Assembly: GCA_902621725.1 (NCBI GenBank)
Contig: CACNND010000003.1
Location: 47,782-111,781 of the forward strand
Length of the DNA stretch: 64,000 nt
Reading direction: 5' to 3'
Source: an uncultured Alphaproteobacteria bacterium
GTDB taxonomy: Bacteria > Pseudomonadota > Alphaproteobacteria > HIMB59 > GCA-002718135
Below, one piece after another: positions 39,709 through 64,000 of the stretch. Every line of letters starts with the position of its first letter. Position 1 is the first letter of the stretch. A program made the position numbers and the translations under genes. The notes below the pieces were generated by a model. The model did no database searches, was not told where the DNA came from, and saw only the letters and a program-made list of their open reading frames with translations.

Positions 39709-40308
39709 ATGTATATTTATGATTTTATCCAAGGATTAATAATTGGAGGAACATTAATTATAGCCATAGGACCTCAAAATTTATTTGTAATACAGCAAGG
39801 GCTTAAAAAATCTTATGTTTTTACAGTTACTTTATTTTGCAGTCTATCAGACAGTTTACTAATTATAATTGGAATATATTTATCTAATTATATTGTTCAA
39901 ATTAATCCAAGTATTATAGGAATAATAAAAGTATTAGGTGGAATTTGGCTTATATCTTATGGATTAAATAAAATTATAAAATTAAATAAATTTAAAAATA
40001 TAAATAAAGAATTAAATATAATTAACGAATTCGGTAAAATATTAATTACCTTGCTTCTTATTACATACGCAAATCCTCATGTTTATATAGATACAATTAT
40101 TTTGCTTGGATCATTATCAACAAATTTTAATGATCAATTTTCATTTGGTATTGGAGCAATTTCAGCTAGTTTTTTGTTTTTCTTTTCTTTGGGATATATG
40201 TCAAAGTTCATATCAAAATATATTTATTCAAATAAAACTTGGTTTTGGATTGATCTAACCATTGGCATGCTAATGATTAGTTATGGGATATATTTTATAA
40301 TTTTTTAA
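39709..40308 (+). CDS. LysE/ArgO family amino acid exporter
   Basis: LIIAIGPQNLFV.QQG, NPHVYIDT. Confidence 0.9.
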   Translation: MYIYDFIQGLIIGGTLIIAIGPQNLFVIQQGLKKSYVFTVTLFCSLSDSLLIIIGIYLSNYIVQINPSIIGIIKVLGGIWLISYGLNKIIKLNKFKNINKELNIINEFGKILITLLLITYANPHVYIDTIILLGSLSTNFNDQFSFGIGAISASFLFFFSLGYMSKFISKYIYSNKTWFWIDLTIGMLMISYGIYFIIF

Positions 40309-43306
40309 AGAAAGTTTCTAAGTTTTTACATACCTGATCAACATTTAATTTTGTAAATACAAGAGGTGGTTTTATTTTAATAACATTGTCATAAGGGCCA
40401 TCAGTGCTCAACAAAATACCTTGATTCCTCATATAATTAATAAGCAATTTAGCTAATTTTTTGTTTGGTTTAGACACATTACTATTTTGAATAATATCTA
40501 TTCCTAAAAAAAGCCCCCTACCCCTAACTTCACTAATATATTTTTTATATTTAAGTTTGATTTTTTTTAATTCTTTTAAAAAATAATTACCAACTAACAA
40601 GGCATTTTTTTGTAATTTATTATTATCAATAGTCTCTAATACTGCTTTACCGATAGCGCAGGAAACGGGATTACCACCGAATGAATTAAAATATTCCATC
40701 CCATTATTAAAAGTTGAAGCTATTTTTTCTGTAGTTATAACAGCAGCTATAGGGTGACCATTACCCATAGGTTTGCCCAAGGTTACTATATCAGGAACGA
40801 CATCATGCTCTTCAAATGACCAAAAATTTCTTCCAACGCGTCCAAAACCAGTTTGTACTTCATCAACAATACATAATGCATTGTTTCTTCTAATTTCTGA
40901 AAATATTTCTTTTAAATAATTTTTTGGAAGAATTACTTGACCACCGCAACCAAGTATACTTTCTGTAAAAAAACATGCAATTTTTGTTTCTTTAATTTTA
41001 TTTCTAATTACTGTTTTAGCTTCATCTATATATTTTTGAATCCAATTTGAATTTTGATATTTCCACTTACCTCTTAAAGGATCAGGCATATCTAATACAT
41101 GAACATAATCTTTTTTACCTAAACCACCCTTACTATTAAATTTGTATGGACTTAGATCAATTAAAGCATTGGTATGCCCGTGATAAGCATTGTCCATCAC
41201 AAAGACATCTTTCGCACTAGTATAAGTTTGAGCTATTCTATAAGCTAAATCATTAGCTTCAGATCCTGTACATACAAAAAATATCTTATTTAATTTCTTT
41301 GGAAACTTACTTAAAAGTAATTCACTATAATCGTTAATTGTATCGTATAGATATCTCGTATTAGTATTAAGTTTTAAATTTTGTTTAATCATAGCTTCAT
41401 GGACATAGGAATTTGAATGCCCAACATGGGAAATATTATTTACACAATCTAAGTATCTCCTGCCATATCTATCAAAAAAATACTGATCTTTAGCTTCAAG
41501 CATATAAAGAGGTTTCTTGTAAGAAATTGATAAATTATCAGAAATATTTTTTCTTCTTTTTTTTAAAGTATCTTTAAAATCATTATTATTAGAATAAAAA
41601 GATTTTGGAATTCGTAGAATTAAATTTGGATCAGGTGAAATTTTATTCCAAATATTGAATAAAAATTCTTCACCTACTCCTGGAAAATTGTTATCATATC
41701 CTAATAAATCTAAAATAATTTGAAAATGTAAATGTGGTAACCATTTTCCATTTTCATTAGAATTACCAATTTTACCAATCCATTCGCCTTTCTTAATTTT
41801 TTTTCCAATTTTTAGTTTTTGAAACATTATTTTGGATAAATGACCGTATAGAGTATAAAATTTATATTTTTTAAAACTATGTTCTAAAACTAGAGTGGGA
41901 CCATAGTCATATTTAAAATTGTTATTTTTTAAAATTATAATTTTACCATCTATTGGCGCAAATAAATCTGTTCCTTGGTCAATAAAGATATCTACGCCTA
42001 AATGAATATTACGTCTTTCATTCGTTTTTAATTCAGAAATAAAGTTAGGTCCCTTATAAACTTTTCTTTTTTCATTGTATAAACCTATTCCTATACGAGA
42101 ATTATCTTCTTTAAATATTTTATTAACCCTTTTTTTAAGCAAACTATTATCTGGGTTACCTTTTAATAAAGGTGAATCAGAACTTAATTTTAAGATAGAT
42201 TTATTTTTATCAAGTATATTAAATTTAAAAATATTATCAAAGTTGAATTTATTTATATAATTTATAATTTCATTATGATGGTGAATAATCTCAAAGCCGC
42301 ATATTTCACGAACAATATATATTAAAAAATTGATAGGAATTTTGTCTAATTTTTCTAATAAAGACCATGCATCTTTCTCACTAATACTTAAATATTGATT
42401 TGATGGATATTTAATTCTTTGTTTTTTTGCCATTACAACAGTAATCATAAGTCTTGACTTACATAATGATATTAATGAATTAATTTCATCTTCATTAATA
42501 GAAAATTGTTTATTGTACTCTGTGATTATATTTTTAAGTGTAAGATAAATATTATCATTATTCATTAATGCATATGAAAGGCATATAGCTAAATCATTTA
42601 TTGTTGGAGAATAAATAGAATCTCCATAATCTAGTAAACCACAAACATTGTTTTTTTTAATAACAATATTATAATTATTTGGATCTGAATGAGTTATTGA
42701 ATATCTTAATTTATTTAAATTATTTTTTACAAATTTTTCATATTCTGAAAAACATTTTAATAAAATTAATTTTTTTGAACCAGTAAAAATATTAATATCT
42801 TTTTTAATCCAACTAATATTTGATGGATCCCAAATAAAATTTCTATGAGCATCTAAATCGTTAAATGCTTGCAACTTAGTTGATACTTTTCCAAGCAACT
42901 TACCTAAAGAATTTTCAATTATATCGTTACTTTTTGTATCTCCATACATTCGCCCATCAATATAAGATAAGATCCTAACAAAGCATTCTCTATTTTTTTT
43001 ATCTAAATATTTTAGAATCTTTGAATGGTGTATTTTTGGTATAAAAGATTTAAGACTAAGATCAGTTCGTAAATAATTTATTAATCTATCTTGGTATTTT
43101 AATATATTTATTTTTTCTGATGGGTTTGAAATTTTTAATACATATTTTTTTTTATTATTTATGAATATAATAAAATTTATATCCCTTTCACTATCAAGTT
43201 GTTTAATTGTGAGTAATTTATTTCTTAAGAAAGAAAAATTAATCTTTAACCATTTAATTAAATGTTTATTATCAATAATAGGTGGATCAACATCAAAAAC
43301 TGACAT
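40295..43306 (-). CDS. Fusion of an APH/hydroxylysine-kinase-like phosphotransferase, an M23 peptidase-like domain and a class III PLP aminotransferase/phospho-lyase
   Basis: SERDINF, HSDPNNYN, DYGD (kinase); HLGVD, LYGHL, PHLHFQ (M23); YLDCVNN..HVGH, GSEANDLA, DEVQTGFGR, LGKPMGNGHP (AGXT2L-like). Start uncertain (43306, 43324 or 43345). Confidence 0.88.
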   Translation of the reverse strand: MSVFDVDPPIIDNKHLIKWLKINFSFLRNKLLTIKQLDSERDINFIIFINNKKKYVLKISNPSEKINILKYQDRLINYLRTDLSLKSFIPKIHHSKILKYLDKKNRECFVRILSYIDGRMYGDTKSNDIIENSLGKLLGKVSTKLQAFNDLDAHRNFIWDPSNISWIKKDINIFTGSKKLILLKCFSEYEKFVKNNLNKLRYSITHSDPNNYNIVIKKNNVCGLLDYGDSIYSPTINDLAICLSYALMNNDNIYLTLKNIITEYNKQFSINEDEINSLISLCKSRLMITVVMAKKQRIKYPSNQYLSISEKDAWSLLEKLDKIPINFLIYIVREICGFEIIHHHNEIINYINKFNFDNIFKFNILDKNKSILKLSSDSPLLKGNPDNSLLKKRVNKIFKEDNSRIGIGLYNEKRKVYKGPNFISELKTNERRNIHLGVDIFIDQGTDLFAPIDGKIIILKNNNFKYDYGPTLVLEHSFKKYKFYTLYGHLSKIMFQKLKIGKKIKKGEWIGKIGNSNENGKWLPHLHFQIILDLLGYDNNFPGVGEEFLFNIWNKISPDPNLILRIPKSFYSNNNDFKDTLKKRRKNISDNLSISYKKPLYMLEAKDQYFFDRYGRRYLDCVNNISHVGHSNSYVHEAMIKQNLKLNTNTRYLYDTINDYSELLLSKFPKKLNKIFFVCTGSEANDLAYRIAQTYTSAKDVFVMDNAYHGHTNALIDLSPYKFNSKGGLGKKDYVHVLDMPDPLRGKWKYQNSNWIQKYIDEAKTVIRNKIKETKIACFFTESILGCGGQVILPKNYLKEIFSEIRRNNALCIVDEVQTGFGRVGRNFWSFEEHDVVPDIVTLGKPMGNGHPIAAVITTEKIASTFNNGMEYFNSFGGNPVSCAIGKAVLETIDNNKLQKNALLVGNYFLKELKKIKLKYKKYISEVRGRGLFLGIDIIQNSNVSKPNKKLAKLLINYMRNQGILLSTDGPYDNVIKIKPPLVFTKLNVDQVCKNLETFFKKL

Positions 43307-43325
43307 AAAAGGTGTATAATTCATA

Positions 43326-44213
43326 ATGCTGAAATCTAAAAACATTTTTGTTTGTATTGGGGCAATTCACCACGATTATTTATTAAATCTTAAAAAAAAT
43401 ATTATTAATTTTAGATCTAATCAAATTATACAAAAAAGCAGAATTGGTGGAGTGGCGTACAATATTGCAGAATTACTTTCGAATTTTGTTGATGTAAATT
43501 TTTATAGTTTAGCTATCAATGAAGAGATTAGAAAAAAAATCTCAAAAAAAATATATGTTCATCAAGTGAATAAAAATTATACAGATAGATACTATTTAGC
43601 TTTATCAGATAAAAATAATAAATTTTTATTAGGATTAGCTAACACAGATGAATATGAAAATAATAAATCTTTAAAAATACCGAACATCAAGAATAAAAAT
43701 ATAATATTTGATCTAAATTTTTCTAAAACCTATTTGGAAAAATCAATAAACAAACTATCAAAAACAAATAAAATTATAGTGTGCGCAACATCAGTGCATA
43801 AAGTTATTAAAATTAAAAGGATTATAAATAAAATTGATTTTATATTCTTAAATAAAGCAGAGTTACTTAAACTTACAAATTCTTCAAATATAATATTAGG
43901 TGTAAAAAAAATATTAAAACAAAATAAAAAAATAAAAATAATTACTACTAATTCAAAAAATAATGTAATCTTTGGAAGTAATGAATTTATAAAAAAAATA
44001 AAACCCCCATCAATCAAAGTAGTAAACGAAAATGGAGCTGGAGACGCACTAGCAGCTATGATGCTGTATTTGTTCAGTGTAAATGAGAAAATGAATTATA
44101 TTTTGAAAACTTCTGTAGCATGCGGATCTTATTATGCTAGTGGTAAAAGTCTAAAAACTAAGAGAGATTTTTTAAAAATTAAAAATCTTTCTAAGAAAGT
44201 GAGTGTACAATAG
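43326..44213 (+). CDS. PfkB-family kinase, probable pseudouridine kinase (divergent)
   Basis: GGVAYNIA, FLNKAE, NENGAGDA; directly upstream of psuG. Confidence 0.75.
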   Translation: MLKSKNIFVCIGAIHHDYLLNLKKNIINFRSNQIIQKSRIGGVAYNIAELLSNFVDVNFYSLAINEEIRKKISKKIYVHQVNKNYTDRYYLALSDKNNKFLLGLANTDEYENNKSLKIPNIKNKNIIFDLNFSKTYLEKSINKLSKTNKIIVCATSVHKVIKIKRIINKIDFIFLNKAELLKLTNSSNIILGVKKILKQNKKIKIITTNSKNNVIFGSNEFIKKIKPPSIKVVNENGAGDALAAMMLYLFSVNEKMNYILKTSVACGSYYASGKSLKTKRDFLKIKNLSKKVSVQ

Positions 44214-44214
44214 T

Positions 44215-45123
44215 ATGCATGAAATATTTGATTTAAGTAAAAAAATTCAAGAAGCAATAAATAGAAAAAAACCAATAGTAGCTTTAGAAAGTACGTTGAT
44301 TAGTCATGGATTACCCTATCCAGAAAATATTAAAGTCGCAAATGAGTCTATAAAGGCTGTTGAAGATAACGGTGCAATTGCTGCAACAATAGGAATAATT
44401 AGAGGTAGGGTTAAAATAGGATTATCGGAAGAAGACATTGAAATATTAGCAAAAGAAAAAAATGTACAAAAAGTTTCAAACAACAATATAAATTTATCAA
44501 TATTTAATAAAGAAAATGCTGCTACAACAGTAGCAAGTACAATTGCTATAGCTTCTAAATTTCAAATAAGATTTTTTGCAACAGGAGGAATTGGTGGTGT
44601 GCATCTAAATGCTGAAAATACCAATGATGTATCTGCAGATCTATATGCACTATCTGAGAATTCAAATTTTGTAATCTGTAGTGGTGCTAAATCTATTTTA
44701 GATATAAGTAAAACAAATGAACTTCTTGAAACTTTAGGAATTACAAGAATTGGTTATCAAACAAATTATATGCCTGGTTTTTGGTATGAAGAAACAGAAA
44801 ATAAAGTCGATAATAAATTTGATGAAATTCATGAAATTTCTTCTTTTTTAAAACTCAATGAAAATATAGGAAATAAAAAATCAATTCTCATATTTAATAA
44901 AGTTCCATCAGAAAAAGCACTTAATAAAAATGACGTAAAAAAATGGATAAATAATGCAACAATAAAAGCTGATAGAAATAATATTATTGGAAAAGAATTA
45001 ACTCCGTTTCTCATAAAAGAAATTAACGAACAATCAAAAAATGAAACTCTAAATGCTAATGTATCTTTAATAATTAATAATGCGAATTTAGCTGGAAAGA
45101 TTGCAAAGAGTTTTTATAGTTAA
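44215..45123 (+). CDS. psuG: Pseudouridine-5'-phosphate glycosidase
   Basis: VALESTLISHGLPYPEN, ATTVAST, FATGGIGGVH, DVSADL, GAKSILD, GKELTPF. Confidence 0.95.
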   Translation: MHEIFDLSKKIQEAINRKKPIVALESTLISHGLPYPENIKVANESIKAVEDNGAIAATIGIIRGRVKIGLSEEDIEILAKEKNVQKVSNNNINLSIFNKENAATTVASTIAIASKFQIRFFATGGIGGVHLNAENTNDVSADLYALSENSNFVICSGAKSILDISKTNELLETLGITRIGYQTNYMPGFWYEETENKVDNKFDEIHEISSFLKLNENIGNKKSILIFNKVPSEKALNKNDVKKWINNATIKADRNNIIGKELTPFLIKEINEQSKNETLNANVSLIINNANLAGKIAKSFYS

Positions 45124-46064
45124 GGTAATAACGATAATTTAGCTTTAAGTAATTGAAAGAATTTTTCATCATTAGCTTCATTCATCACAAAACAATTTAC
45201 TGGTCTTTTAGTAACACCTAGCCAATCAACAACAGTCTCCCCTCTTGTTAATTCAGAATTTTCTTCAACTGTGACATTAACTTTTTTTCCACTAAAAATA
45301 GATGGATCTAACAAATATGCAATAACACATGGGTCATGCAAAGGAGTTTCCTCAGTTTCGTATAATTCTTTATGAAATATTGTATAAAATTCCATTAGTT
45401 CTCCAAAAAACTTAGAACTTTTATTATTATTTTCATTCATTGATTTGATAATTTTTGAATTTACATTTACCTGATGAGTAACATCTAAACCCATCATTGT
45501 TAAAGGAATGCCTGATTCTAAAACAATATTAGCCGCATGTGGATCTACATAAATATTAAATTCAGCTGATGGTGTAGTATTTCCTAAGCACATAGCAGCC
45601 CCACCCATAAAAACTATTTCTTTTATATTTTCTTTAATAGACGGATCTTTTTTTAAACTTAAGGCAATATTTGTAAGAGGTCCTGTTGGACATAAATAAA
45701 TTTGCTCTGTTGAAGATTTACAAGTTTCTACTATGAAATCAACTGCATGTTTTTCTTGAGGTTTATAATTTGTATCTATTATTATAGGATCACCTTTTTT
45801 ATCTAATCCGGTTTTTCCGTGAACATATTCAGCTGTAAATAATTCATAATGAATAGGTTTATTTGCACCAGAGTAAACTTTAATGTCCGTTCTTTCAATT
45901 AACGTACAAACTTTAAGAGCGTTATTTACTGTATTATTTAAACCACTATTTCCACCCACACAGGTGATACCCAGTATGTCAATCTCCTTAGAAGAAGAAG
46001 CTAACATTATTGCTACAGCATCATCATGACCTGGGTCACAATCTAAAATTATTTTTTTAGTCAT
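45120..46064 (-). CDS. Nucleoside hydrolase (IU-NH/Rih family)
   Basis: DCDPGHDDA, VHGKTGL, TGPLTNIA, AEFNIYVDP, LHDP; start trimmed to ATG 46064. Confidence 0.93.
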   Translation of the reverse strand: MTKKIILDCDPGHDDAVAIMLASSSKEIDILGITCVGGNSGLNNTVNNALKVCTLIERTDIKVYSGANKPIHYELFTAEYVHGKTGLDKKGDPIIIDTNYKPQEKHAVDFIVETCKSSTEQIYLCPTGPLTNIALSLKKDPSIKENIKEIVFMGGAAMCLGNTTPSAEFNIYVDPHAANIVLESGIPLTMMGLDVTHQVNVNSKIIKSMNENNNKSSKFFGELMEFYTIFHKELYETEETPLHDPCVIAYLLDPSIFSGKKVNVTVEENSELTRGETVVDWLGVTKRPVNCFVMNEANDEKFFQLLKAKLSLLP

Positions 46065-46920
46065 TAATAAAACTTTTAAGAGGTATTGAAGACCTTTGTA
46101 ACCAATTCCATTCAGGATATTCGTTGTTATTCTCAATTACATGAATTGTGTAAGCATGTCTTGATTTTAAACTTGTGTTCTCACATGAGTAATGAGGGAG
46201 TCTACCATGTAATAAAACAAGTGATCCTTTTTTTACTTCTACAAAAGTATCAGTTTCAGGAAATGGTTCATGATTTAGATCTATCATTTGCATTTTACCG
46301 TCTACTTTTTTAAAAAGTTTTCTTAATGGGCCTTTATGACCTCCACTTGCAACCTGTAAACATCCGTTTGTTTTATTTGCGTCTTCTAATGCAAACCAAA
46401 AACCGATAGTACTTTCTGGCTCGGTATATAAAAAGGTAGAATCTTGATGACAAACTACTTCACCACCTATTTTAGGTTGTTTAAAAATATACATAGACTG
46501 AAGTAATTTTGGTTTTGAGAAACCAAGTGATAAAGCTATATCTTGAAGTTTTTGTTTATGAGAAAATTTATAAAAAACTTTATCCAAGTCATGCAAAGCA
46601 TGACCGATTTTGTTTACAATATAATGTTTATTTTCTTTTATGTTATCATCTTTTAAATTAGCTTTTTCTTCAAAGAAGAAACGAATTTTATCTCCTGATT
46701 CTAGAAAATAACTATCATCATTATGAGCTTGATTTACTGTATCAAAAATAGATTTTTGATTATTAAAATTATTATGTTCGATAAGATATGATGATCGTTC
46801 CATCAATTCATCACATTCTTTATCTGTGTTGAAATTTTCTATAACCAAATATCCATTATTATTCCAAAAATTAATCATTTCATCGTTTAAGGGTAAATCA
46901 TTTGTTGAGAAATATTTCAT
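46057..46920 (-). CDS. Fe(II)/2-oxoglutarate dioxygenase, PhyH family (PHYHD1-like)
   Basis: FLESGDKIRFFFEE, NKIGHALHD, QSMYIFKQPKIGGEV..HQDSTFLYTEP, WFALEDA, SRHAYT. Confidence 0.9.
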   Translation of the reverse strand: MKYFSTNDLPLNDEMINFWNNNGYLVIENFNTDKECDELMERSSYLIEHNNFNNQKSIFDTVNQAHNDDSYFLESGDKIRFFFEEKANLKDDNIKENKHYIVNKIGHALHDLDKVFYKFSHKQKLQDIALSLGFSKPKLLQSMYIFKQPKIGGEVVCHQDSTFLYTEPESTIGFWFALEDANKTNGCLQVASGGHKGPLRKLFKKVDGKMQMIDLNHEPFPETDTFVEVKKGSLVLLHGRLPHYSCENTSLKSRHAYTIHVIENNNEYPEWNWLQRSSIPLKSFIND

Positions 46921-47153
46921 TATATTCCTATTAATCTTGTCAAGAATGGTAAACCAACTTTAATAAGATTTAATAACTGTGGTATCAAGAATTTTCCAGT
47001 TGTTGCAAGAAAGAAGATTATACCTCCAATTATGACTATCAGAATTAAATTTCTATAAAAGCTACCATAATTATTATATTGTGATTTAGCTCTTGATCTC
47101 AAAATAAATAGTATAATTACTATAACAATTAAAACTATTAACAATCGGAACAT
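46920..47153 (-). CDS. Small membrane protein, hypothetical
   Basis: Two TM segments; translationally coupled to the PhyH gene. Confidence 0.7.
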   Translation of the reverse strand: MFRLLIVLIVIVIILFILRSRAKSQYNNYGSFYRNLILIVIIGGIIFFLATTGKFLIPQLLNLIKVGLPFLTRLIGI

Positions 47154-47221
47154 ATATTTTCTATATTTAGTAAAAATTAATTTGCAATACTAATTATATC
47201 TAAATAAATAGTTTTTAGTAG

Positions 47222-47605
47222 ATGATCAAATTAAGCATATTATTTTTATCAATTTTTTCTTTAATTTATGGAATATATTTTTTATTTTTTCCATATAGTT
47301 TTGTTAATTTAACTGCTGCTGAAAGTACCAATATAGCATGGCTTAGAAATCTTGGTGGAGCTATAACAGGTCTTTTATTTATTGGTCTTTTCATGATCTA
47401 CTTGAATACAAAAGGCTCTATTAGATTACTAAATGTTATTATAATTACATCCATTATACAGACTTCAGCTTTAATATATTCAAGAATAGCAAATGAATTT
47501 TCTGCAAATAATGTTATAATTATCGATGTAACTATTTATGCAGCAATAATCGTTACTCTTTATTTACTATTCATTTCAATTAGATTTAAAAAACTATTTA
47601 TTTAA
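47222..47605 (+). CDS. Four-TM hypothetical membrane protein
   Basis: 127 aa hydrophobic ORF. Confidence 0.7.
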   Translation: MIKLSILFLSIFSLIYGIYFLFFPYSFVNLTAAESTNIAWLRNLGGAITGLLFIGLFMIYLNTKGSIRLLNVIIITSIIQTSALIYSRIANEFSANNVIIIDVTIYAAIIVTLYLLFISIRFKKLFI

Positions 47606-59373: not shown

Positions 59374-60045
59374 AGTAGTAATTCATACATAGCTGAAGAT
59401 TATAAATTTTCAAATCAAACTATTAAAGAGATGAAAATTAATTCTTTTAATTTTTATAAAAAAATAAAAGAAAGACGGAGTATACGTGATTTTAATAAAA
59501 CAAAAATAGATATAGAAATTATAAAAAATGCAATTTTATCTGCCGGATCTGCACCAAATGGTGCCAATCTTCAACCATGGCATTTTGTTATTATAAAAGA
59601 TCAAGATATTAAGAAAAAGATTAGAATAGCAGCAGAAAAAGAAGAAAGAACTTTTTATGAATATAAAGCTCCAAAAGAATGGTTAGATGCATTAAAACCC
59701 TTAGGTACTGATGAAAACAAAAAGTTTATTGAAAATGCACCTTATCTAATTGCAGTATTTGAAAAAAAATATTCTATTTCCAAAAATAAAAAAATTAAAA
59801 ATTATTATGTTAAAGAGTCTGTAGGAATTGCTACCGGTATTTTAATTACATGTTTACATTTTTGTGGTTTAGCAATGTTAACACATACTCCCAGCCCTAT
59901 GACTTTTCTAAATAAAATTTTAAATAGACCAATTAATGAAAAACCATTTGTTTTGTTAATTGTAGGTTATCCCAAAAAGAATACTAAAGTTCCAAAATTT
60001 GCTAAAAAGAAAAAAAATTTTAACGAGATTTCTAGTATTTTTTAA
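59368..60045 (+). CDS. Nitroreductase superfamily, iodotyrosine deiodinase (IYD)-like
   Basis: RRSIRDF, APNGANLQPWHF, KKIRIAAEKEE..FY, LGTD..K.F, YYVKESVGIA, LTHTP. Confidence 0.87.
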   Translation: MHSSNSYIAEDYKFSNQTIKEMKINSFNFYKKIKERRSIRDFNKTKIDIEIIKNAILSAGSAPNGANLQPWHFVIIKDQDIKKKIRIAAEKEERTFYEYKAPKEWLDALKPLGTDENKKFIENAPYLIAVFEKKYSISKNKKIKNYYVKESVGIATGILITCLHFCGLAMLTHTPSPMTFLNKILNRPINEKPFVLLIVGYPKKNTKVPKFAKKKKNFNEISSIF

Positions 60046-60545
60046 CGAAGTTCTTCAGGTTTCATTGTTTCATATACCTCATAAGGCATATGTATCCATG
60101 GAGAATCTTTTAAGTAATCTACATAATAATCAGGTTTAAATGAAGAAACGGCCTTATAAAATAATACGCCAGTTCTAATAGGTTCCTCAATATAAAAACC
60201 ATAAGTATGGTTTAACCAATCAATGCTTTTTTTTAAGGTAATACCAGAGTCAGCTAAATCATCAACTATTAATACTTTAGAGCCAATATTTGGGCTAGTT
60301 TTTGCTAAATCTCGTGAGAAAGTAATAGCACCCCTTTTGTTTTTTACTCCTTCACCTTTATAAGACTCTACTGATAGGATTGCTAAAGGCACATCAAATA
60401 TTCTTGCCATTACATCACCTACTCTCATACCACCTTTTGCAATACATACTACCTGATTAAATTCCCATCCATCTTTATGAATTTGTTTAGCTAAGTTTTC
60501 TGTTTTACTTCTATACTCATCCCAACTAATGTGTAGATCAGACAT
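60042..60545 (-). CDS. Purine phosphoribosyltransferase (Gpt/Hpt-like)
   Basis: ISWDEY, IAKGG, VLIVDDLADSGITL PRPP motif, PDYY, WIHMPYE. Confidence 0.85.
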   Translation of the reverse strand: MSDLHISWDEYRSKTENLAKQIHKDGWEFNQVVCIAKGGMRVGDVMARIFDVPLAILSVESYKGEGVKNKRGAITFSRDLAKTSPNIGSKVLIVDDLADSGITLKKSIDWLNHTYGFYIEEPIRTGVLFYKAVSSFKPDYYVDYLKDSPWIHMPYEVYETMKPEELR

Positions 60546-60579
60546 AAATATTCCCTATTCCTTTTGAAATTAGATTTCA

Positions 60580-60607
60580 TACCTCTCTCTTAGAGTAGAG
60601 AGAGGTA
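60580..60607 (-). terminator. Perfect 11-bp stem-loop downstream of the BMP gene (terminator or mRNA-stabilising hairpin)
   Basis: TACCTCTCTCT-TAGAGT-AGAGAGAGGTA; no long U-tract follows on the minus strand. Confidence 0.6.
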
Positions 60608-60619
60608 AATTTGATTTAA

Positions 60620-61687
60620 TTATTGTGGTACTTCCCCATCAATACCTTGAACATAAAAGTTCATTCCAAGTAACATTCCATCAGGTGCTACTTCACCTTC
60701 AGGAACCACAAGCTCACCAGCTTGATTGTAAATTGGACCTGTGAAAGGATGGATAGTTCCATCTTTAATTCCAACTTCCATATTTACAGCTTCTTGAATT
60801 AAACTTGCTGGCATAAGTTTAGTATTATATGGTGACATTACAACCATACCTTTATCCATACCATCCCAAGTATCACCTGAAGACCAAGTACCATCCACAA
60901 CAGCTTTTGCTCTTTCAGCATAGTAAGGGCCCCAGATATCTTCAATTGAAGTTAAGTGTGCATCAGGACAAAATTCCTCTTGGTTTGAAGCTTGACCAAA
61001 TGCATAAACACCTGCTTTTTGAGCGGCTTGGCAAGGAGCATATGTATCTGTATGCTGAACAATTATGTCAGCTCCTTGATTAATCAATGTATTAGCTGCA
61101 TCAGCTTCTTTACCTGGGTCATACCAAGTAAATACCCAAATAATTTTCATTTTGATATCTGGATTTACTTTAGATGCCGCTAGATAAAATGCATTAATTC
61201 CTCTTACAACTTCTGGAATAGGGAATGAAGCTATATAACCAATAGTATTAGTTTCAGTCATATGACCAGCAATATGACCTTCAATCATTCTACCTTCGTA
61301 AAATCTAGCTGAATACGTAGCAACGTTATCTGCTTGGATATACCCAGTAGCATGTTCAAATTTTATGTCAGGAAAATCCTTAGCTACTTCATGTGTCTGA
61401 TCCATATAATTGAAAGACGTTGTAAATATTAAATCATGTCCTGAGTCTGCTAGTTTCCGGATTGCTCTCACTGCATCTGCATTTTCAGGAATATTTTCAA
61501 GATAAGTAGTAGTAATAGAGTCACCAAGTTGGCTCTCCATATATTTTCTACCTACATCATGCATATAAGTCCAACCATGATCACCTGGAGGACCTATGTA
61601 TATAAATCCAACTTTTTTAGGGTCTGCATATACTGAACCAAATGCAAATACCAAAAAAGTAGATAAAAAAGTTATTATTCTAATCAT
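60620..61687 (-). CDS. BMP family ABC transporter substrate-binding protein (purine/nucleoside)
   Basis: GFIYIGPPGDHGW, FTTSF, FEHATGY, PIPEVVRGINAF, WYDPGKE, QHTD. Confidence 0.92.
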   Translation of the reverse strand: MIRIITFLSTFLVFAFGSVYADPKKVGFIYIGPPGDHGWTYMHDVGRKYMESQLGDSITTTYLENIPENADAVRAIRKLADSGHDLIFTTSFNYMDQTHEVAKDFPDIKFEHATGYIQADNVATYSARFYEGRMIEGHIAGHMTETNTIGYIASFPIPEVVRGINAFYLAASKVNPDIKMKIIWVFTWYDPGKEADAANTLINQGADIIVQHTDTYAPCQAAQKAGVYAFGQASNQEEFCPDAHLTSIEDIWGPYYAERAKAVVDGTWSSGDTWDGMDKGMVVMSPYNTKLMPASLIQEAVNMEVGIKDGTIHPFTGPIYNQAGELVVPEGEVAPDGMLLGMNFYVQGIDGEVPQ

Positions 61688-61793
61688 TTTAACCTCACCT
61701 GCTAATATAACGATTACTCAATCACATACTTAATATATACAAATAGATTTGATCAATAATTGTATATGATTATAGAAAAAAAAAAGTGGATAT

Positions 61794-62663
61794 TTATCTG
61801 CCTTTGTAAAAAGGTATAGTTAACGAAGCTGGAGCACTAAGCTTTATTCTTAATTTATTACTAGAAATTAACACTAAAACTATAATAGTTGCAATATATG
61901 GAGCCATGCTGAAAAATTGGCCAGGGAATCTTAAACCTAAAGCCTGGAGATTCATTTGAAGAATAGTAACACCTCCGAATATATAGGCACCAATAAGCAC
62001 TCTTTCTGGTTTCCAAGTTGCAAATACAACTAAAGCTAACGCAATCCATCCACGTCCAGCTGTCATACCCTCTTGCCACATTGGAGCATAACAAATTGAA
62101 ATATATGATCCTGCAAGTGCGCACATAGAACCTCCAAATAAGATTGATAAAAATCTAATTTTAATAACGCTATATCCTAAAGCATGTGCAGAATTATGGG
62201 ATTCCCCTACTGCTCTTAAAATCAAACCAGCTTTAGTTTTATAAAAAAAATAACTAACCAAAAAAACAATTAAGAAAGAAAATATAACAAAAAACCATGG
62301 TGATAGACCATCAATTGGTGTTCCAATATATTGTTTGCCAAGCATCGAACTAAGACCTATTCCAAAAATGGTTAATGCTAATCCTGTTGCAATTTGATTT
62401 GACATTAAAAATAGAACTAAAAACGCAAATAAACCAGACATAATAATTCCTGATAATATAGATACAAAAAAAGCTAAAAAATAACTTCCTGTAATTACTA
62501 GGATAATAAAAGCGGACACTGCTCCTACCAACATCATTCCTTCTACACCTAAATTTAAAACACCAGATTTTTCTGTAACTAACTCACCTATACCAGCAAA
62601 AACAAGAGGTGTTGTTGCAATTAAAACAATTTGTAATATTCCAAGTATTAAATCTAAATTCAT
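61794..62663 (-). CDS. Nucleoside ABC transporter permease
   Basis: EKSGVLNLGVEG, LRAVGE, AGRGWIALALV, PYIATI. Confidence 0.92.
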   Translation of the reverse strand: MNLDLILGILQIVLIATTPLVFAGIGELVTEKSGVLNLGVEGMMLVGAVSAFIILVITGSYFLAFFVSILSGIIMSGLFAFLVLFLMSNQIATGLALTIFGIGLSSMLGKQYIGTPIDGLSPWFFVIFSFLIVFLVSYFFYKTKAGLILRAVGESHNSAHALGYSVIKIRFLSILFGGSMCALAGSYISICYAPMWQEGMTAGRGWIALALVVFATWKPERVLIGAYIFGGVTILQMNLQALGLRFPGQFFSMAPYIATIIVLVLISSNKLRIKLSAPASLTIPFYKGR

Positions 62664-63733
62664 AATAATTTTTTGTAAGTTAATTTATAGTTAATTAGTA
62701 ATTCTGCACCCAATAAATAAAATAAAACCAAACCCTGAAATATAAAACCTACCGCTGAAGGAATTTGTAAAAACAATTGTGCATCTTCAGCACCAAGATA
62801 AGTAAGAGCGATAACTAAAGAAGCAAAAATAATACCTATTGGGTGAAGTCTACCTAAAAAAGCAACAATAATTGCAGTAAATCCATAATTTGGAGAAATA
62901 TCTCTATACAATAATCCAATTGGGCCAGATACTTCAGCTAAACCTGCAATACCTGCAAAAGCGCCACAAATTGCAAAAGCAAAAAAAACTAAAGTTGTTT
63001 GATTAAAACCAGCATATCTAGCAGCTTTAGGACTGTAACCAGAAACTTTTAATTGAAAGCCAAAAATAGTTTTTGAAAATATAAACCAAGATACAAAAAT
63101 TAAAAATAGCGTTATAATTAGTCCAAAGTGCACCCTTAAACCATCAAATAATAGAGGCATTCTTCCAGATTCACTAAATGGTCTTGATTTAGGAAAACTA
63201 TAACCAAATGGATCTTTCCACGGCCCCACTACTAAATAATCTAAAATAAATAAAGCAACATAAACTAACATTAAACTTGTTAAAATTTCATTTGTATTAA
63301 ATTTTGTTTTTAAAATAGCAGGTATTAAACCCCATAATGCTCCTCCAATTGCTCCTGCAAAAATCATTAATGGCAACAACCAGAAAGCATTTGTATCATG
63401 AAATAATATTCCAATACCTCCACCAAAAATTGCACCCATGGTAAGTTGTCCTTCAGCTCCAATATTATAAATATTATTCTTAAAACAATATGAAAGACCA
63501 ATTGCAATTAAGGCTAAAGGAGTTGCTTTTACAAACAATTCAGAAATACCGTAGGTTGAAGAAATAGGTGAAATAAAAAATGTATACAATGCATAAACTG
63601 GATCAAAACCAAGAAGAACAAAAATAATTGAACCTGTAATTAAAGTTAAAACTATTGATATTATAGGAACAAAAAAATTCATTAAACCCGAACTCTGTGA
63701 GCGAGAAACTATTGATGGAAATAAACTATTCAT
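62660..63733 (-). CDS. Nucleoside ABC transporter permease
   Basis: NIGAEGQ, NEILTSLML, AARYAG, YGFTAIIVAFLGRLHP; start at ATG 63733 or GTG 63742. Confidence 0.92.
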   Translation of the reverse strand: MNSLFPSIVSRSQSSGLMNFFVPIISIVLTLITGSIIFVLLGFDPVYALYTFFISPISSTYGISELFVKATPLALIAIGLSYCFKNNIYNIGAEGQLTMGAIFGGGIGILFHDTNAFWLLPLMIFAGAIGGALWGLIPAILKTKFNTNEILTSLMLVYVALFILDYLVVGPWKDPFGYSFPKSRPFSESGRMPLLFDGLRVHFGLIITLFLIFVSWFIFSKTIFGFQLKVSGYSPKAARYAGFNQTTLVFFAFAICGAFAGIAGLAEVSGPIGLLYRDISPNYGFTAIIVAFLGRLHPIGIIFASLVIALTYLGAEDAQLFLQIPSAVGFIFQGLVLFYLLGAELLINYKLTYKKLL

Positions 63734-64000
63734 TTTTTCCACCCATCAATAATCCTAATTTTTCTATTTCTATTTCGCTAGTTTTAAAAGGTTTGGATAA
63801 ATTACCATCATAAATAACAGATATTTTATGAGTAATTTCAATTAACTCATCTAAATCTTGAGAAATAACAATTATAGACGTTCCATTTTGAGATAATTCT
63901 ATCAAAGACTCTCTTATAGAATGCTCAGCACCAGCATCTATCCCCCAAGTTGGATGTGAAATAATTAATATTTTTGGCTTAGATGATATTTCTCTACCAA
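63726..64000 (-). CDS. Nucleoside ABC transporter ATP-binding protein, C-terminal part
   Basis: Manual translation ..GREISSKPKILIISHPTWGIDAGA...IVISQDLDEL...LGLLMGGKNE*; not in the ORF track. Confidence 0.88.
   Translation of the reverse strand, partial: GREISSKPKILIISHPTWGIDAGAEHSIRESLIELSQNGTSIIVISQDLDELIEITHKISVIYDGNLSKPFKTSEIEIEKLGLLMGGKNE

Follow-up and report, generated by a model that had tools for sequence, protein, structure and literature searches.

A PHYHD1-type dioxygenase gene coupled to a nucleoside hydrolase gene in a HIMB59-type marine alphaproteobacterium: a predicted salvage module for 2'-O-methylated nucleosides

Within a 64,000-nucleotide stretch of genomic DNA from an uncultured alphaproteobacterium (assembly GCA_902621725.1, contig CACNND010000003.1, positions 47,782 to 111,781; hereafter 'the window'), we examined five genes that form two convergent, densely packed units: a pfkB-family kinase gene and psuG on the plus strand, facing a small open reading frame (ORF), a dioxygenase gene and a nucleoside hydrolase gene on the minus strand. 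We think it likely that the minus-strand unit salvages 2'-O-methylated ribonucleosides from RNA breakdown in two steps: a dioxygenase of the PHYHD1 type would remove the methyl group, and the hydrolase would then cleave the resulting nucleoside. The demethylase chemistry is taken from the literature; what this enzyme acts on, and that demethylation comes first, we infer from family membership and gene coupling. The host is a streamlined marine alphaproteobacterium of the HIMB59/AEGEAN-169 type, with a genome assembly of 1.38 Mb in 65 contigs (81.6% complete, ∼27% G+C).

Gene arrangement and identity of the dioxygenase

The locus is laid out as follows, with lengths in amino acids (aa) or nucleotides (nt) and Pfam matches in parentheses:

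43326..44213, plus strand: divergent pfkB-family kinase, 295 aa, assigned as PsuK by context (PF00294, 4.4e-15, partial match)
44203..45123, plus strand: pseudouridine-5'-phosphate glycosidase PsuG, 306 aa (PF04227, 1.6e-99)
45120..46064, minus strand: RihA-like nucleoside hydrolase of the inosine-uridine type, 314 aa (PF01156, 5.3e-104)
46057..46920, minus strand: PHYHD1-type Fe(II)/2-oxoglutarate dioxygenase, 287 aa, predicted 2'-O-methyl nucleoside demethylase (PF05721, 1.1e-39)
46920..47153, minus strand: hydrophobic ORF of 77 aa with two hydrophobic stretches, leading the minus-strand unit (no Pfam or NCBIfam family)
47154..47221, no strand: 68-nt spacer between the minus-strand unit and a divergent gene at 47222, a likely promoter region judged from its position

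An initial annotation of this DNA had placed five ORFs at these positions, and all of them were recovered as ORFs, four of them with family matches. Strong family scores for four of the five, together with conservation in relatives, place the genes beyond chance. The stop codon of the dioxygenase gene overlaps the start of the hydrolase gene by 8 nt (ATGACTAA), as had been proposed and as the junction sequence bears out. This overlap follows from placing the hydrolase start at ATG 46064, where its conserved N-terminus (MTKKIILDCDPGHDD) begins, rather than at the TTG at 46136 that opens the automatically called ORF (45120-46136). The small ORF and the dioxygenase gene have 1 nt in common between stop and start (TAATG), and the pfkB and psuG coordinates overlap by 11 nt. 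The stop codons of psuG and the hydrolase gene overlap by 4 nt on a palindromic TTAA (45120-45123) with zero spacer, which leaves no room for a terminator between the two convergent genes. With this geometry, the transcripts of each unit would read antisense into the other.

The dioxygenase spans the entire PF05721 profile (positions 1-213 of 213). Its closest sequence in the PDB is human PHYHD1 (2opw/3obz; E = 1.5e-53, 185 bits, residues 16-277), compared with 37 bits (2.7e-8) for phytanoyl-CoA hydroxylase (PHYH; 2a1x). An AlphaFold model built on 40 relatives (predicted local distance difference test score (pLDDT) 93.7, predicted template modelling score (pTM) 0.92) was compared with known structures using Foldseek. 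It matched 3obz with a template modelling (TM) score of 0.86 and 36% identity in the structural alignment, and the next best match was PHYH (2a1x) at 0.62. The dioxygenase is therefore of the PHYHD1 type by sequence and by fold, as the initial annotation had suggested from the motifs NKIGHALH and QSMYIFKQP.IGGEV..HQD.TFLYTEP, both of which occur in the protein. The genome encodes five PhyH-family proteins, of which this is the only one of PHYHD1 type (a single match at E ≤ 1e-40). Close relatives abound in marine metagenomes: each of the 8000 candidates scored matched the dioxygenase at E ≤ 1e-10, with identities of 71-98% among the 120 listed. One protein in a representative library (P0121, 600 aa) contains two tandem PHYHD1-like stretches (E = 1e-99), which points to a duplication or fusion, or else to two genes annotated as a single one.

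The activity of enzymes of this type has been described by Stonkus et al. (Nucleic Acids Res 2025, PMC12709175), and the statements that we draw from that paper refer to the portions of its text available to us. This is the report to which the initial annotation had alluded without a source. It identifies FJS, a dioxygenase from a soil metagenome, as a 2'-O-methyl nucleoside demethylase, using a genetic selection that depends on the inability of E. coli to use 2'-O-methylcytidine. Genes were assayed there by whether they allow pyrimidine-auxotrophic E. coli to grow on 2'-O-methylcytidine or 2'-O-methyluridine. Activity is reported for FJS, for human PHYHD1 and for fish, mouse, fly, fungal, plant, three bacterial and one giant-virus homologues. 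The reaction is a 2-oxoglutarate-dependent removal of the 2'-O-methyl group from free nucleosides with release of formaldehyde. The enzymes accept many bases and are inactive on 5'-phosphates, 3'-O-methyl nucleosides and a methylated RNA duplex, and phyhd1-deficient fish build up free 2'-O-methylated (Nm) nucleosides. The support for our assignment covers 2'-O-methyl nucleosides and none of it extends to base methylations (m6A, m1-pseudouridine).

Docking in the same study placed K102, H105, Q139 and W277 in contact with the ribose, stacked the base on F161 and proposed S154 of human PHYHD1 as a contact for purines; the four ribose contacts are described as conserved among the non-bacterial enzymes tested (PMC12709175). 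In our alignment, the four ribose contacts and F161 correspond to K104, H107, Q141, W273 and F163 of the dioxygenase, and the iron-binding HxD...H triad (H158, D160 and H243) aligns with that of human PHYHD1. Across the 40 relatives (37-74% identity), K104, H107, H158, D160, H243 and W273 are invariant and Q141 is nearly so.

The hydrolase covers the full PF01156 profile (positions 1-297 of 297, 5.3e-104), and a DCDPGHDD motif at residues 8-15 matches DxDxxxDD, the N-terminal calcium- and ribose-binding motif of inosine-uridine nucleoside hydrolases. In this family the ribose hydroxyls bind the active-site calcium, so that a free 2'-OH matters for cleavage. The closest structure is E. coli RihA (3g5i, 4.5e-75). 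The protein falls below the cut-off of the NCBIfam RihA equivalog model NF007761 (341.9 bits against 433); we therefore describe it as RihA-like only. The 77-aa membrane ORF that leads the unit matched no Pfam or NCBIfam family, and its atlas clusters are unnamed only.

Conservation of the locus and linkage to nucleoside genes

Loci for comparison were collected with a pattern scan in which each prokaryote species was represented by one genome and an alignment of 10 dioxygenase sequences served as the query. At least 600 candidate stretches were returned, 566 of them confirmed relatives, and we examined the 80 best loci with up to 10 kb on each side. These 80 are the best-scoring loci rather than a random sample. 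The queries used to detect nucleoside genes were derived from the loci themselves: neighbouring ORFs were clustered, recurrent clusters were named with Pfam, and these were then searched back by tblastn.

In all 19 loci of the HIMB59 type (dioxygenase identity 63-98%), the small ORF, the dioxygenase gene and the hydrolase gene lie in the same register and psuG is convergent. The kinase gene is present in 17 of them, and the remaining two loci stop short of it. The small membrane ORF occupies the same place in 19 of 19, at 42-97% identity by tblastn. Among more distant records that share this gene order, two carry the labels HIMB59 and MarineAlpha5. Of 36 genomes examined from the genus, the same 27 encode the dioxygenase, the hydrolase and PsuG, and none of the three was found in 24 genomes of the sister family (same order, 81-99% complete); the three genes are adjacent, so their joint presence or absence counts as one observation rather than three. 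When five of the nine genus genomes lacking the genes were checked, the flanking gene was cut at a contig end in two and missing in three, and these absences look like assembly gaps and not losses. The flanking aminotransferase-fusion gene was also missing in the five sister-family genomes that were checked.

That flanking gene (40295-43345, minus strand) encodes a 1016-aa fusion of an APH-like phosphotransferase, an M23 peptidase domain and a class-III aminotransferase; it scores 1013 bits against NCBIfam PRK06148, under the cut-off of 1128. In each of the 17 HIMB59-type loci long enough to include it, this gene adjoins the five-gene island. Since its annotated start and that of the divergent pfkB gene overlap by 20 nt, the true start of one or the other probably lies further downstream.

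The other 61 loci, in which the dioxygenase is 46-53% identical to that of the window, carry the gene in several different settings. A gene for nucleoside uptake or catabolism is present in 31 of them, at a distance of no more than 200 nt from the dioxygenase gene in 30 of these. The linked genes comprise deoA, deoB, deoC, deoD, cdd, add, nupC and those for a BMP transporter and a nucleoside hydrolase. Fifteen loci from Woeseiaceae and other Gammaproteobacteria combine the dioxygenase with a pyrimidine nucleoside phosphorylase, a NupC-type transporter, a nucleoside hydrolase and a ribokinase, with a cytidine deaminase and a phosphopentomutase nearby, and represent an independent lineage with a nucleoside hydrolase in the dioxygenase operon. 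A TonB-dependent receptor gene and an amidohydrolase gene lie divergently upstream of the operon in this type (L058, L065, L069 and 12 similar loci), and the receptor suggests outer-membrane uptake of nucleoside-like compounds. A second arrangement, found in 13 loci from Kiloniellaceae, Pelagibius, Dongia and other alphaproteobacterial families, comprises BMP-type ABC permeases, deoD, deoC, deoA, deoB and the dioxygenase gene, followed by an adenosine deaminase or 5'-nucleotidase gene. In three loci from Acidimicrobiales, the order is cdd, deoA, add, dioxygenase, add, deoC.

Matches to nucleoside genes thin out with distance from the dioxygenase gene, from 2.89 per 10 kb in the first 2.5 kb to 0.32 per 10 kb at 7.5-10 kb, and all 82 matches within 2.5 kb are on the dioxygenase strand. 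A maximum-likelihood tree built from 81 dioxygenase sequences gives 100% support in the Shimodaira-Hasegawa-like approximate likelihood ratio test (SH-aLRT) to three clades, those of the HIMB59 type, the Woeseiaceae type and Acidimicrobiales. Context labels change seven times on that tree compared with a mean of 48 in shuffles, a contrast that is inflated by relatedness. A more cautious conclusion is that the dioxygenase is linked to nucleoside genes in no fewer than four separate clades that differ in gene order. The initial annotation had made its proposal depend on a conserved linkage of this kind, and it is present in at least four lineages. For the co-localisation that it had suggested counting, dioxygenase, hydrolase and psuG are kept together in 19 of 19 HIMB59-type loci, and psuG was not seen near the dioxygenase gene among the 61 others.

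Predicted pathway and competing explanations

In the pathway that we propose, free 2'-O-methyl nucleosides, either imported or of internal origin, would be the starting material. The dioxygenase, with Fe(II), O2 and 2-oxoglutarate, would hydroxylate the 2'-O-methyl carbon, and the resulting hemiacetal would break down to formaldehyde and an ordinary ribonucleoside, with succinate and CO2 as further products. The hydrolase, presumably translated from the same message through the overlapping stop and start codons, would then convert the plain nucleoside to base and ribose. A uracil phosphoribosyltransferase could take up the base and a ribokinase the ribose; alternatively, the plain nucleosides could enter the cluster of cytidine deaminase (cdd) and phosphorylase genes found elsewhere in the genome.

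The genome appears, from its gene content, able to use these products. It encodes a uracil phosphoribosyltransferase and a ribokinase (306 bits, above the curated cut-off of 299.65), and a separate contig carries a cluster of cdd, purine/uridine phosphorylase and pyrimidine nucleoside phosphorylase genes, with genes for an adenosine deaminase and another pfkB kinase close by. On contig C5 (L126:5347-8537) the cdd/phosphorylase cluster runs directly into an O-methyltransferase gene (PF01596, 4.8e-62). The initial annotation had also pointed to a BMP importer and a phosphoribosyltransferase (PRTase) some 13 kb away. These lie 12.9 kb from the locus, on the minus strand at 60042..63742, and form a candidate system for nucleoside import and base salvage:

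60042-60545, minus strand: phosphoribosyltransferase (PF00156; weak match to a xanthine PRTase model, 52 bits against a cut-off of 138)
60620-61687, minus strand: BMP-family binding protein (PF02608)
61794-63742, minus strand: two permeases (PF02653 twice)

BMP permease genes occur within the dioxygenase clusters of other Alphaproteobacteria, and a paper on AEGEAN-169, in the part available to us, describes Bmp nucleoside transporters as highly expressed. A role for the BMP importer in this salvage is plausible.

On the plus strand, PsuG is a clear orthologue of the E. coli enzyme: it matches PF04227 over its full length (1.6e-99) and the E. coli structure 4gij over residues 7-304 (2.2e-73). 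The segments ALESTxISHG, GGIGGVH and GAKSILD, which we take to be catalytic, align with 4gij. In three close relatives (L162, L170 and L172), the psuG match begins at query residue 1 or 2 and is interrupted by a single in-frame TAA; the gene need not be broken, since a start further downstream or a sequencing error may account for this codon. The kinase is much more divergent. Its match to PF00294 is partial (56 bits, 4.4e-15), and a search of the PDB with the single sequence reached two uncharacterised kinases only and not the E. coli pseudouridine kinase (7vkp). A profile of five orthologues did reach 7vkp over its full length (3.3e-9), in third place after two uncharacterised kinases. The genome has a separate ribokinase, so the kinase beside psuG is not needed in that role. 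We assign it as PsuK mainly by context, from the overlap of its gene with psuG; of the PsuK-like/PsuG pair in the initial annotation, the PsuG half thus stands on sequence similarity and the kinase half chiefly on that overlap.

The pfkB-psuG unit would phosphorylate pseudouridine and then cleave the product to uracil and ribose-5-phosphate. We know of no hydrolase that cuts the C-glycosidic bond of pseudouridine. PsuK and PsuG fit a theme of salvaging the commonest RNA modifications, and their tie to the dioxygenase is one of adjacency in one lineage. The two convergent units may be linked in function. A more tentative proposal, which we hold to be possible and on balance doubtful, is that the five genes form one co-inherited island for RNA modifications that lie beyond ordinary salvage enzymes. 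In that arrangement a base-tolerant demethylase would feed both arms, with Nm nucleosides passing to the hydrolase and 2'-O-methylpseudouridine being converted to pseudouridine for PsuK and PsuG.

Several observations weigh against these proposals. Within the dioxygenase, human S154, the proposed purine contact, is replaced by Val156. A helix segment specific to PHYHD1 (human Q56-L71) is present and 4 residues shorter, and the model is at its least certain there (pLDDT 66-74, with two short helices at 65-68 and 70-73). Conservation of the ribose contacts is stated for the non-bacterial enzymes in the available text of PMC12709175, so the bacterial enzymes tested there may belong to a different branch. 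The introduction of that paper also describes nucleoside hydrolases (LbNH, AgNH and RK9NH) that cut 2'-O-methyl nucleosides directly, and demethylation is therefore not strictly required. For the plus-strand unit, the NCBIfam PsuK model (NF007355) is not among the matches of the kinase at E ≤ 0.001, and psuG lies near the dioxygenase gene only in the HIMB59-type loci among the 80, so that the link between psuK/psuG and the dioxygenase is one evolutionary event in one lineage.

The comparison of loci adds to this side of the balance, since 30 of the 61 other loci lack a nucleoside gene with the queries used here. Nine of these 30 have the dioxygenase gene between a gene of the chromate-transporter family (ChrA) and a GNAT acetyltransferase gene and come from metagenome-assembled genomes labelled Acidobacteriota or Heliobacteriaceae. 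With no nucleoside catabolic neighbour, the dioxygenase may have a different role in them. In six of the ChrA-type loci (the type comprises L060, L063, L076, L083, L093, L108, L116 and others), a gene of the uridine-kinase family lies 5-7 kb away. The other 21 unlinked loci show nothing recurrent. In nine of them the sequence extends for under 5 kb to one side or both, and 23 neighbours sampled from 11 of these 21 loci included MFS transporters, LexA, a GDPD and others.

Transcription data bear on the coupling of the genes to a limited extent. Fourteen marine libraries recorded as RNA contain part of the stretch, and in the four examined, contigs at 90-99% identity span all five genes. The dioxygenase/hydrolase junction is bridged in each of the four (X1 45547-46422, X3 45811-46419, X2 45811-46141 and X12 45765-46090), and the small-ORF/dioxygenase junction is bridged by one contig (X1 46607-47400). 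These are assembled contigs that may include DNA carry-over, and a contig over two genes is not the same as one transcript; they give no strand, level or transcript ends, and gaps in their cover mean nothing. We therefore take the bridging contigs as a weak hint of joint transcription. A scan for promoters and terminators performed no better than shuffles in this AT-rich DNA (29 sites against 36.6 expected), gave no terminator-like site between the convergent units, and was accompanied by a search that found no Rfam family in the region. The 68-nt spacer is the likely promoter since it is the only non-coding DNA upstream of the minus-strand unit.

One alternative to demethylation is that the dioxygenase acts on nucleosides and has a different main substrate, either hydroxylating C2' of deoxyribonucleosides or removing another alkyl group from ribose or base, with a ribonucleoside that the hydrolase can cleave as the product. 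The pyrimidine deoxynucleoside 2'-hydroxylase activity of fungi is a precedent for hydroxylation at C2', and linkage to a hydrolase needing a free 2'-OH fits either reaction. The substrate table in the available text of PMC12709175 includes no 2'-deoxynucleosides. In that same text, however, every active family member that was tested removed 2'-O-alkyl groups, and the residues proposed to hold the ribose with its 2'-O-methyl group toward the iron are all conserved here. A 2'-hydroxylase would moreover be redundant beside the thymidine/pyrimidine nucleoside phosphorylase encoded in this genome and in the other clusters, with deoC and deoB found elsewhere; the phosphorylase in the genome in particular weakens the case for a deoxynucleoside 2'-hydroxylase. 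A literature search for a 2'-hydroxylase gene returned nothing usable. We regard this alternative as unlikely.

It is also quite unlikely, in our estimation, that the hydrolase itself cleaves 2'-O-methyl nucleosides, with the two enzymes working in parallel or on different substrates and their coupling serving co-expression only. Such activity is known for the family members cited in the introduction of PMC12709175, in the portion available, and the score of the present hydrolase below the RihA equivalog cut-off leaves its specificity unfixed. Under such a scheme there would be little selection to keep a demethylase coupled to the hydrolase in 19 of 19 loci, and most other lineages pair the dioxygenase with phosphorylases and not with a hydrolase. 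That pairing fits an enzyme that supplies plain nucleosides to whichever cleaving enzyme is present.

We consider it very unlikely that the substrate in this lineage is not a nucleoside and that adjacency to the hydrolase gene is inherited gene order without functional meaning: the great diversity of PF05721 substrates, the four other PhyH paralogues in the genome, the 30 of 61 loci without a nucleoside neighbour and the generally stable gene order of streamlined genomes, which reduces 19 of 19 in one lineage to a single event, would all allow it, but the 8-nt overlap with the hydrolase gene, the independent recurrence of same-strand nucleoside neighbours in Woeseiaceae, several alphaproteobacterial families and Acidimicrobiales with differing gene orders, and the restriction of the PHYHD1 type to one of the five PhyH paralogues all speak against it.

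Relation to known enzymes and gene clusters

The portions of PMC12709175 available to us give no physiological setting for the bacterial members of the family, and a term search of its main text found no discussion of the bacterial gene context of the demethylases. Our literature search turned up no publication that describes this module in HIMB59/AEGEAN-169 or a cluster of demethylase and hydrolase genes. The genomic linkage described here therefore provides independent support for the published activity and suggests a concrete pathway for it, running from demethylation through cleavage to salvage of base and ribose. It also suggests that modified nucleosides from RNA decay are a nutrient that oligotrophic bacterioplankton pay to recover. 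If the doubtful proposal of a single five-gene island were true, the AEGEAN-169/HIMB59-type lineage, abundant in the oligotrophic ocean, would be specialised in harvesting dissolved modified nucleosides, and such nucleosides would be a real and so far uncounted item in the turnover of marine dissolved organic matter.

Among known systems, the dioxygenase is closest to the human PHYHD1/FJS-type demethylases (PMC12709175, as available to us; structures 2OPW/3OBZ), with which it shares the Pfam family, the fold (TM 0.86), the iron triad, the five nucleoside-contact residues and nearly the same length (287 aa against 291 aa for human PHYHD1). It differs from the human enzyme in being bacterial, at 36% identity, in the change of Ser154 to Val and in a helix at the pocket mouth that is 4 residues shorter, and it is known here from sequence and a model. 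A further difference is that its gene is translationally coupled to that of a nucleoside hydrolase.

The deo/nup-type clusters of the Woeseiaceae, Kiloniellaceae/Pelagibius/Dongia and Acidimicrobiales types contain an orthologous dioxygenase (46-53% identity) on the same strand as adjoining genes for nucleoside cleavage and transport. Those clusters are large, with deoA, deoB, deoC, deoD, cdd, add, nupC or a BMP ABC transporter and sometimes a TonB receptor, whereas the module in the window is reduced to dioxygenase and hydrolase, with the phosphorylases on another contig and psuK/psuG as neighbours. The plus-strand unit resembles E. coli PsuK/PsuG (YeiC/YeiN) in having a PsuG orthologue likewise paired with an overlapping pfkB kinase gene, and differs from it in that the kinase is very divergent and no NupC-type transporter gene adjoins. 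RK9NH, LbNH and AgNH belong to the same enzyme family as the hydrolase and share its physiological theme, a likeness drawn from their description only in the available part of PMC12709175; those enzymes skip demethylation and release 2'-O-methylribose, whereas here a demethylase is predicted to precede the hydrolase. The enzyme activity is already published, and the locus fits a known enzyme into a pathway rather than representing a new kind of system. What is particular to it is the minimal dioxygenase-hydrolase form, the psuK/psuG neighbour and an abundant host from the oligotrophic ocean.

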